Virus record (IMG/VR): IMGVR_UViG_2684623077_000006
Strand: one strand, 5' to 3'
DNA from: a virus
Taxonomy: Duplodnaviria; Heunggongvirae; Uroviricota; Caudoviricetes
Length of the DNA: 13,925 nucleotides
Numbering within the stretch: position 1 is the first letter of the stretch; the number at the start of each line of letters is the position of its first letter. Of this stretch, positions 1,877-2,574 are shown piece after piece. Both the position numbers and the translations under genes were made by a program. A model generated the notes under the pieces. That model made no database searches. It was given only the letters and a program-made list of their open reading frames with translations, and was not told the DNA's origin.

Positions 1877-1906
1877 ATAAAACAAAGGCGACCGGGGGCG
1901 GTCGCC
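1877..1906 (-). terminator. Rho-independent terminator on the minus strand (stem ggcgaccg / cggtcgcc, loop gggg)
   Basis: Perfect 8-bp GC-rich stem at 1887-1894 / 1899-1906. On the minus strand it is followed by TTTGTTTTAT; on the plus strand it is followed by aatgggaaaac, so it is oriented for minus-strand transcripts. Confidence 0.5.
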
Positions 1907-1970
1907 AATGGGAAAACACTAAACATAAGCACGGGGATGATAGCCGCTATCAGGCTGGTGGGCAATGCAA

Positions 1971-2144
1971 TCAGTCTGGTTCAGTTCGTTGCCATACCTG
2001 CAATGAGCGCTTTTCCCTGTACTCTTTAAGGAATTGCTCAAGGGCAAAAGCACATGACGCGAATCTTTCTGATTCATGCTCTATCTTTCTGCGCCGTCTT
2101 TTCCGTGCCGGTGATAATGTTTTGGTCAATTCTTTATCGGTCAT
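1971..2144 (-). CDS. Hypothetical small basic protein (57 aa)
   Basis: ORF MTDKELTKTLSPARKRRRRKIEHESERFASCAFALEQFLKEYREKRSLQVWQRTEPD; AGGA 8 nt upstream of the ATG at 2144; same frame as the upstream minus-strand ORF, separated by one TAA. Confidence 0.3.
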   Translation of the reverse strand: MTDKELTKTLSPARKRRRRKIEHESERFASCAFALEQFLKEYREKRSLQVWQRTEPD

Positions 2145-2201
2145 TGTGTTGTCCTGCATAGCAATGCGCCGTAATACCTTACACCACGGCGCTGGTGATG
2201 G

Positions 2202-2381
2202 TTACTCCTGCTCTTTGGCTTTGCGGCGCTGGCGGCGTTTGATCTCGCCTTTTGCGGCAGTAACTAAAAAACCAGCGGTACTTTCGCCAGGTTCTTTAAG
2301 TTGCTCAATATCATCCATTACTTCATGTGGGATTCTGACAGTTGTCATTTGTGATTTTGCGTTCTTTGCACCAGTTGCCAT
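2202..2381 (-). CDS. Small ribbon-helix-helix-like putative DNA-binding protein (59 aa)
   Basis: ORF MATGAKNAKSQMTTVRIPHEVMDDIEQLKEPGESTAGFLVTAAKGEIKRRQRRKAKEQE; AGGAGA 7 nt upstream of the ATG on the minus strand; TATACT -10-like hexamer further upstream; minus-strand terminator downstream. Confidence 0.45.
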   Translation of the reverse strand: MATGAKNAKSQMTTVRIPHEVMDDIEQLKEPGESTAGFLVTAAKGEIKRRQRRKAKEQE

Positions 2382-2446
2382 TTCTGGATCTCCTAAAAAT
2401 TGGTGTATGTCAGTATACGCAAAAAAAATGATAAAAAAAGGCTTGA

Positions 2447-2495
2447 AGTGTATTTCACCAGTGAGTAAATTAAAAAGCAAAGGTGAAATACACCT
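2447..2495. promoter_or_regulatory. Candidate operator: 12-bp perfect inverted repeat (gtgtatttcacc / ggtgaaatacac) with 22-bp spacer, between divergent starts
   Basis: Arms at 2448-2459 and 2482-2493; lies between the minus-strand RHH-like gene (start 2381) and the plus-strand Icd-like gene (start 2575). Confidence 0.4.
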
Positions 2496-2574
2496 GAAAG
2501 AGCAACGCCCCGCAGTGCTCGCAACACATGCAGGGCGTCTAACCACCAACGATAGAAAGAGTATCGAGGTAGCT

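Follow-up and report, generated by a model that had tools for sequence, protein, structure and literature searches.

A ribbon-helix-helix candidate repressor and its putative tripartite operator in an overlapping-gene cassette of Gram-negative phage satellites

How a phage satellite of Gram-negative bacteria is held in its resting state is the question raised by a small minus-strand cassette in the 13,925-nt window analyzed here, the whole stretch of IMG/VR record IMGVR_UViG_2684623077_000006 (Caudoviricetes); coordinates are positions in this window unless another locus is named. Phage-inducible chromosomal islands (PICIs) of Gram-negative bacteria are induced through AlpA, and the downstream genes of the model island EcCICFT073 require AlpA, but its repressor has not been identified (PMC6092414). 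Our literature search for a repressor of Gram-negative PICIs returned nothing specific. The cassette lies between alpA and the replication operon and contains two small open reading frames (ORFs), ORF A and ORF B. We consider it fairly probable that the product of ORF A is a dimeric ribbon-helix-helix (RHH) transcription factor serving as the promoter-level immunity or maintenance regulator of the island, and phage satellites of Gram-negative bacteria, whose repressor is missing, thereby gain a strong candidate for it. ORF A and its ribosome-binding site are located as follows.

2202..2381, minus strand: ORF A, encoding a 59-residue RHH protein of the YlcI/YnfO family, candidate repressor; ATG at 2381-2379, stop codon TAA at 2204-2202.
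2389..2394, minus strand: Shine-Dalgarno (SD) sequence AGGAGA of ORF A, seen in the sequence; a purine-rich SD is present at the equivalent place in related loci.

The ORF A product matches the NCBIfam model NF041551 (YlcI/YnfO) (64 bits, E = 9e-18; the model cutoff is 30 bits), and PGAP gives it the same family name. Pfam returned nothing significant for ORF A or ORF B of the window; DUF3950 is missed by the window allele of ORF A and matched by the allele of locus L040. A sequence-profile search of the PDB gave noise only, and PADLOC found no match in the cassette. The AlphaFold2 model, built from 36 sequences with a predicted local distance difference test score (pLDDT) of 88, has an extended N-terminal segment followed by two helices, corresponding to the N-terminal β-strand and two helices of the RHH superfamily; as modeled, with confidence, ORF A is a small RHH protein. 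Its top structural neighbors are the antitoxin DNA-binding domains of CopA_SO, HicB, MazE9, TacA, and ParD. The protein is conserved from Escherichia to Xenorhabdus, and we found 179 homologues (65-98% identical) in Salmonella, Enterobacter, Klebsiella, Yersinia, Pectobacterium, Dickeya, Hafnia, Serratia, Edwardsiella, Xenorhabdus, and other genera. Within one allele group spanning many genera, the gene is under strong purifying selection (synonymous polymorphism pS 0.59, nonsynonymous polymorphism pN 0.084, pN/pS 0.14), and the frames at ORF A that are not wobble-aligned give pN/pS values of at least 2. A tblastn search of 50,697 phage records, P4 included, found no homologue, so that the subfamily looks satellite-specific. 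The literature search on the function of YlcI, YnfO, or DUF3950 found nothing specific; the family is named but uncharacterized.

Gene order was compared in 32 loci, one genome per species from approximately 20 genera, and in another dozen loci from E. coli. It is constant, with int, alpA, ORF A on the opposite strand, an Icd-like (or Ash-like) gene, DUF4222, and a primase/helicase gene. In every locus, ORF A thus converges with alpA and diverges from the replication operon. This is the position of a PICI master repressor, between int and rep. A preliminary description of the window had called the 59-residue protein RHH-like from the letters alone, and both the predicted fold (pLDDT 88) and the NF041551 match bear this out; its conservation in related islands is evident from the homologues and the constant synteny.

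The 190 bp upstream of ORF A, whose layout was compared in approximately 40 loci from many Enterobacterales genera, carry two predicted promoters, leftward P_L and rightward P_R, and three candidate operators.

2403..2413, no strand assigned: candidate operator O3 (CTGACATACAC), over the predicted transcription start of P_L; in nearly all loci its position relative to the ATG is +22.
2412..2417, minus strand: −10 hexamer TATACT of P_L, 36 nt before the ATG in approximately 40 loci; inferred from this conservation.
2443..2471, plus strand: putative promoter P_R, with −35 TTGAAG (2443-2448), a 17-nt spacer, and −10 TAAATT (2466-2471).
2448..2458, no strand assigned: candidate operator O2 (GTGAAATACAC), an exact 11-mer in the 17-nt spacer of P_R; at +67 in all loci.
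2483..2493, no strand assigned: candidate operator O1 (GTGAAATACAC in the plus-strand reading), an exact 11-mer just downstream of the P_R −10.

The candidate operators share an 11-bp GTG-N5-CAC form. O1 and O2, both exact 11-mers, lie 35 bp from each other, and for these the chance expectation is approximately 0.007 exact copies per window. The geometry is fixed throughout: O1 is followed after 12-24 bp by O2, which abuts a conserved TCAA; TATACT comes exactly 24 nt on, with O3 directly after it, and the ATG is 36 nt from the start of TATACT. On the plus strand, this TCAA corresponds to the P_R −35 (TTGAAG, TTGACG, or TTGAGG), which stands at a fixed position in all loci and thereby places O2 exactly in the P_R spacer. 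P_L has a T-rich stretch upstream and no recognizable −35. In essentially every locus the allele-specific 11-mer occurs at +22, +67, and +89 to +102 from the ATG, with no further copies within up to 8 kb per locus; matches with two mismatches at 1340 and 1653 of the window are at chance level.

The N5 core varies between islands, and it does so together with the β-strand of ORF A, in which R16 is invariant, as are the GTG/CAC flanks of the operators. The strand QMTTVRIP (M12/T14) is paired with the core GTGAAATACAC, QQLNARFP (Q12/N14) with GTGAATCGCAC, QALKARVP (A12/K14) with GTGTGGCCCAC, LQVSVRLP with GTGAACACCAC, QQIVSRVP with GTGAATGCCAC, and QKLQARAP with GTGGA(C/A)TCCAC. Both QSITVRVL and QSVTARIA (S12/T14) are paired with GTGTCTTACAC; these two strands, of L026 and L036, have the outward residues S12, T14, and R16 in common and differ at buried positions, and the shared core is what would be expected for RHH recognition. 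In L002, alpA is 97% identical, and in L003 the Icd-like gene and ORF B are 97% and 98% identical, respectively; in both loci the operators are different and ORF A is 61-64% identical. Since the operators differ despite near-identical neighbors, alpA, the Icd-like gene, and ORF B are not the specificity determinant. ORF A therefore very probably binds the three GTG-N5-CAC sites, as far as sequence covariation can tell, and its dimer may insert a two-stranded sheet into the major groove there, as the covariation of the cores with residues 12 and 14 of the β-strand indirectly suggests.

The operon that P_R would drive starts with an Icd-like gene and carries an RNA immunity unit.

2505..2538, plus strand: conserved leader hairpin of the rightward transcript, with compensatory changes at 9 of its 12 pairs in a comparison of 19 loci; z = −2.6.
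2575..2778, plus strand: Icd-like (kil-like) gene, 67 residues, the in-frame C-terminal part of a 302-residue ORF and the first gene after P_R.
2809-2858, plus strand: c4-a1b1 targets (Rfam RF03163, 46.8 bits).
2822-2900, plus strand: isrK-like element, inside a 227-residue ORF at 2771-3454.
2926-3013, plus strand: C4 antisense immunity RNA (Rfam RF01695, 72.3 bits).

The Icd-like gene matches NF033153 (E = 1.4e-19), has its own SD (GAGGT), and begins with an ATG at 2575 in frame with the 302-residue ORF. The RF01695 and RF03163 scores are above the gathering thresholds, so that the C4 RNA and its upstream target of P4-type RNA immunity are both present. The translationally coupled 227-residue ORF holds c4-a1b1, the C4 RNA, and a second Icd-like domain; this is the eta/CI/kil layout of P4, and the protein annotations at this place in related genomes are probably spurious. 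C4 and isrK RNAs in PICIs have already been noted (PMC10111431). The leader hairpin at 2505-2538 has a T-rich run 3' on the minus strand and could alternatively be a leftward terminator shielding the control region.

Since O2 lies in the P_R spacer and O1 just past the −10, their occupancy would hold the P_R operon down in the resting island. The operator positions thus suggest repression of P_R. In the class of Stl and Rpr, the repressors of the Staphylococcus aureus pathogenicity islands (SaPIs) and the Gram-positive PICIs, respectively, the repression of island genes is relieved in the helper cycle. It is, on the other hand, conceivable that ORF A is mainly an activator or a dual regulator, which stimulates its own P_L from O2, tunes P_R for the supply of C4 RNA, or both. 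P_L has no −35 and O2 is centered approximately 48 bp upstream of the predicted P_L start, the C4 RNA downstream of P_R is needed in the immune state, and P22 Mnt and lambda CI follow the same dual logic of activation and repression. Nevertheless, a promoter spacer (O2) and transcription starts (O1 and O3) are classical positions for a repressor, and RHH proteins are overwhelmingly repressors, so that we regard a mainly activating role as unlikely.

Several points weigh against ORF A as the repressor at these sites. The same β-strand KLQARA is found with slightly different cores in L025 and L042, and the cores of the Q12/S14 alleles of L028 and L044 are not the same either; the code must therefore involve more than residues 12, 14, and 16. 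The operators lie next to the gene, so that linkage by itself would lead to some co-inheritance; the triplication of the allele-specific core within each locus argues against pure linkage, but triplication alone does not identify the binder. A consensus promoter scan called neither P_L nor P_R, both of which resemble the sigma-70 consensus weakly and were recognized through their conservation. Full repression of P_R would also silence the C4 RNA downstream, so that the regulation is perhaps partial or even positive. Allele-specific operator copies near the alpA promoter were sought in each locus and none was found, and a role of ORF A as direct repressor of alpA is rejected on this ground. The case is built on sequence and a structural model.

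The cassette does not occupy its DNA alone, as an open frame of the opposite strand runs through it from the end of alpA.

1649..1858, plus strand: alpA (PF05930, E = 1e-15), convergent with the cassette.
1870..2778, plus strand: eta-like ORF, 302 residues, antisense through ORF B, ORF A, and the control region; SD AGGGGGAG at 1859-1866.

The eta-like ORF starts 11 nt after the alpA stop, which its SD adjoins, and a strong SD and start at or overlapping the end of alpA are found in many genera. In all 45 distinct loci the frame is free of stops over 285-1434 nt, compared with 0.063 stops per codon in the other two plus frames of the same loci; by sequence, the long ORF from the end of the AlpA gene and the Kil/Icd-like gene nested in frame are present in these 45 loci. 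From the protein sequence of each ORF A allele and the local codon usage, the wobble-aligned frame antisense to ORF A would be expected to lack stops with a probability of approximately 0.5 per allele, but it lacks them in 32 of 32 distinct alleles; the remaining antisense frames always contain stops. The eta-like frame is apparently translated through the cassette. Its amino acid sequence is not conserved, except for the codons that encode the leftward terminator hairpin, which suggests selection on ribosome transit and not on the protein product. The recurrent "Icd-like pseudogene" fragments annotated by PGAP in this region are explained by the plus-strand frame. From alpA through the primase gene, each stop codon overlaps or adjoins the next start codon (e.g., ATGCGTAA at 2771-2778; also at 3454-3460 and 3756-3759), so that the ORFs make up a translationally coupled chain. 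The preliminary description had taken ORF A and ORF B as the only plausible minus-strand genes of 13.9 kb, which is reasonable for the ORF list of the window, in an otherwise single-strand island, which overlooks that the plus strand is also open, and apparently translated, through the cassette.

This arrangement could also mean that the leftward RNA itself is the brake, by pairing or colliding with read-through from alpA, with the proteins being secondary. Over its first 500 nt (5' end), the eta-like mRNA would be matched by a fully complementary leftward transcript that ends precisely before alpA, and the layout is convergent in every locus. A function of the RNA alone cannot account for the strong protein-level selection on ORF A and the allele-specific operators, and we consider it improbable as the main function; it is compatible with a repressor role of ORF A rather than exclusive of it.

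The leftward transcript would continue from ORF A through the following elements.

2166..2192, minus strand: intercistronic hairpin between ORF A and ORF B, with the stem kept and the loop varying across E. coli variants.
1971..2144, minus strand: ORF B, a 57-residue basic helical protein with the conserved core ERFAPCAFALEQFLKEY; stop at 1973-1971; found in Escherichia/Shigella only.
1877..1906, minus strand: intrinsic terminator of the leftward transcript, a GC-rich hairpin (1906..1887) and a U-tract (1886..1877).

In the minus orientation alone, TTTGTTTTAT comes after the terminator hairpin, which has a free energy (dG) of −17.5 kcal/mol and z = −4.2 relative to shuffled sequences, and a leftward terminator lies 3' of the cassette in every E. 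coli variant, even where the sequence has been replaced. Its hairpin doubles as codons 5-12 (KTKATGGGRQ) of the plus-strand ORF (1883-1912), and the motif M..KTKA..GRQ recurs at the start of this ORF in many genera. The intercistronic hairpin (dG −17.7 kcal/mol, z = −1.0) is not more stable than shuffled sequences. The promoter-like TATACT, SD AGGAGA, and terminator that the preliminary description assigned to the cassette are all at the positions it gave, and the fixed promoter geometry, the leftward terminators of the E. coli variants, and the pN/pS of 0.14 place them beyond chance; it had noticed neither P_R and the three operators nor the eta-like ORF on the opposite strand and the C4 RNA immunity element just downstream.

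ORF B has an alternative start at ATG 2159, which would give 62 residues. Its 29 homologues are all from E. coli or Shigella, and an exhaustive profile search of 1.84 billion representatives gave only 10 matches. The pN/pS of 0.36 is only moderately discriminating against 0.43-0.51 in the two opposite-strand frames, one of which is the wobble-aligned frame of the plus-strand ORF. Its coding status relies mainly on the divergent homologues P0151 and P0153, in which the core (F/Y)xPCxFALExFLK(E/R)(Y/H) is retained and the basic run moves or changes, and on this basis we take ORF B for a real protein. In CFT073 and UTME-8 it is annotated by PGAP, and it matches phrog_21027 (function unknown), with no match in Pfam, NCBIfam, or PADLOC. 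The AlphaFold2 model consists of helices (pLDDT 73; predicted template modeling score, pTM, 0.37) with no compact fold. As a speculation, ORF B might bind RNA, given its arginine-rich N-terminus beside the conserved hairpin. In loci outside Escherichia, ORF A has no conserved ORF 3' of it.

As the preliminary description observed, ORF A and ORF B of the window share a frame and are separated by a single TAA, and it had raised the possibility that a stop disrupts what is a single gene, or that the stop is read through. This, programmed read-through included, is extremely improbable: ORF B has its own start, two in-frame stops separate the ORFs in L002, L003, and L045, homologues of ORF A in approximately 20 genera end at the same point with nothing like ORF B downstream, and no fused protein is present among the 179 homologues of ORF A and the 29 of ORF B. 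The common frame is better explained by the plus-strand ORF, which forbids frame-shifting indels and leaves multiples of three.

The two genes could also form a type II toxin-antitoxin system, with ORF A as the autoregulating RHH antitoxin and ORF B as a small basic toxin stabilizing the island. The order of the genes, RHH first and a small second gene next, would fit, as would the antitoxin domains among the structural neighbors of ORF A; moreover, in Escherichia the start of ORF B is always 57 nt past the RHH stop, even after an unrelated RHH allele. However, ORF B matches no toxin or defense family in the three databases named above and is absent from every locus outside Escherichia, where the RHH gene and operators are conserved. 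The promoter of the neighboring replication operon, and not just that of the cassette, is overlapped by operators, namely two of the three, and ORF A has no unstructured neutralizing tail beyond a conserved basic helix. We therefore give a toxin-antitoxin function little credence. Of the "repressor or antitoxin-like" module first proposed, the repressor-like part stands, with its own predicted promoter and cognate candidate operators, but the antitoxin part is not upheld.

Taken as a repressor, ORF A would work as follows. In the resting island it would be made from the weak leftward promoter P_L (TATACT, 2417..2412) and bind the three GTG-N5-CAC operators of the 190-bp divergent control region. 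P_R would drive the Icd-like/kil-like gene, the C4 immunity RNA, and then DUF4222 and the primase; O3, over the transcription start of ORF A itself, would provide negative autoregulation. The leftward mRNA would comprise ORF A, the hairpin, and, in Escherichia, ORF B, and would end at 1906..1887 before entering alpA in antisense. Upon induction by a helper phage, transcripts from the alpA promoter would cross the cassette head-on, kept translated by the 302-residue eta-like ORF as the late transcripts of P4 are by eta. This translation would shield them from polarity and C4-dependent termination and bypass the control of P_R, and the crossing transcripts would interfere with the expression of ORF A, giving a switch. 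Such a scheme agrees with the published AlpA requirement of the downstream genes of EcCICFT073 (PMC6092414).

Similar to Stl and Rpr, ORF A lies between int and rep, divergent from the replication operon, and its proposed role is, by analogy, to keep the island quiet. In contrast, Stl has a helix-turn-helix fold and is lifted by a helper-phage protein, and the island has no operator at the alpA promoter. A parallel in layout is the immI region of P22, with the RHH repressors Mnt and Arc and the divergent promoters Pmnt and Pant. There, as proposed for the island, a small RHH repressor gene is divergent from the operon it controls, an operator overlaps the target promoter, the repressor is autoregulated, and a secondary immunity is layered on another control system. 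No sequence homology to immI is detectable, however; the island has three GTG-N5-CAC candidate operators, its operon is one of Icd-like gene, C4 RNA, and replication rather than of an antirepressor, and its RHH gene is antisense inside an apparently translated ORF. The plasmid copy-control RHH repressors CopG (pMV158) and omega (pSM19035) differ from ORF A, which belongs to a chromosomal phage satellite, has allele-specific operator families, and is nested antisense. By analogy with CopG or with Mnt/Arc of P22, ORF A is probably a repressor of the immunity type that also regulates its own expression. YlcI (DLP12) and YnfO (Qin) of E. coli K-12 belong to the same hidden Markov model family NF041551/Pfam DUF3950, and some island alleles likewise match DUF3950; a literature search found no functional study of the K-12 proteins. 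Their genes lie near the terminase end of lambdoid prophages, rather than in a divergent control region beside alpA.

The left operon of P4 is similar to the island in that alpA/vis is followed by a long ORF, which runs from the end of alpA, encloses a promoter, and closes in an Icd/Kil-like domain; a C4/CI RNA and its a1b1/seqA targets are likewise present in both (PMC10111431). The P4 eta gene starts at the end of vis (AlpA family) and contains the constitutive promoter PLE, and its translation is required for late transcripts to escape immunity-dependent termination (PMC10111431). In our Rfam analysis, eta of P4 (8812..8168) contains a1b1, isrK, and C4 elements, the same matches as in the window. 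The original work on the nested kil and eta genes of P4 is reportedly that of Forti and colleagues in 1999. P4 differs in having no RHH gene antisense to eta and no homologue of ORF A, and its immunity at PLE is purely RNA-based; the island has an extra, RHH-bearing eta-like unit before the C4 unit. It thus appears to combine a P4/P1-type RNA immunity unit with an additional upstream eta-like unit housing the RHH cassette.

The slot of ORF A is itself variable in Escherichia. In L005 (1782-1955, minus strand; O157-type, where PGAP leaves the gene unannotated) and L048 (2136-2315, plus strand), it holds an unrelated RHH gene encoding 57-59 residues, which is sub-threshold to YlcI/YnfO and weakly Arc-like, with repeats of its own (e.g., GGTAATTACCATGT, twice); the hairpin and ORF B 3' of it are unchanged. 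Two further observations resemble recombination scars: at approximately 2681-2806 of L042/L043, a 41-residue ORF after ORF B ends in EIKRRQRRKDKEQE, the C-terminus of ORF A, and at 2800-4200 of L049/L050, the cassette is duplicated in tandem with the first RHH copy degenerate. Alleles may be exchanged by crossover at the 3' end of ORF A, which is conserved.

The satellite in the window is of the capsid-forming PICI type. According to the ORF list and Pfam, its plus-strand genes encode an integrase (1-1239), AlpA (1649-1858), two Icd-like proteins, DUF4222, a D5/P4-type primase, a single-stranded DNA-binding protein (SSB), the major capsid protein, a protease, a portal protein, HNH, TerS, and TerL. 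This is the gene set of capsid-forming PICIs, int, alpA, and primase with own capsid, protease, portal, HNH, TerS, and TerL, and PGAP annotation of a near-identical island, which sits between cspD and clpS in E. coli SaT040, agrees. The SaT040 island (L051) carries a 168-residue hypothetical gene after ssb (1381-1887, minus strand) that is missing from the window, indicating a variable accessory slot. At the DNA level, the region 1860-2560 is matched in 1938 of 5426 complete E. coli genomes, about a third, including CFT073, the host of the model island EcCICFT073, which has the cassette.

We classify the locus as that of a probable RHH immunity repressor whose putative operator is tripartite and whose gene overlaps others in an unusual architecture. 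In the literature searched, neither the RHH gene and its function nor the operators or the nesting in antisense are described. A broader interpretation, possible though tentative, is that RHH proteins of the YlcI/YnfO type are the promoter-level repressors sought in Gram-negative PICIs and P4-related satellites, that the β-strand/operator alleles define immunity groups among co-resident islands, and that antisense nesting makes a bistable switch. Two overlapping coding frames would then form a convergent switch conserved across Enterobacterales, in which AlpA-driven read-through and repressor expression exclude each other by way of the eta-like (ribosome-transit) ORF; ORF B could be an Escherichia-specific RNA-binding modulator of this switch. 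The cassette is present in model islands, in EcCICFT073 itself and, with a different RHH allele at the same position, in O157/EDL933-type islands. The outcome is a candidate regulator with operators and promoters predicted at nucleotide resolution, together with a natural set of specificity alleles for swap experiments. A real protein gene nested antisense in a second open frame is also a rare and well-replicated case of bidirectional coding at the same locus, and engineered PICI "drones" derived from such islands might be tunable through the switch.

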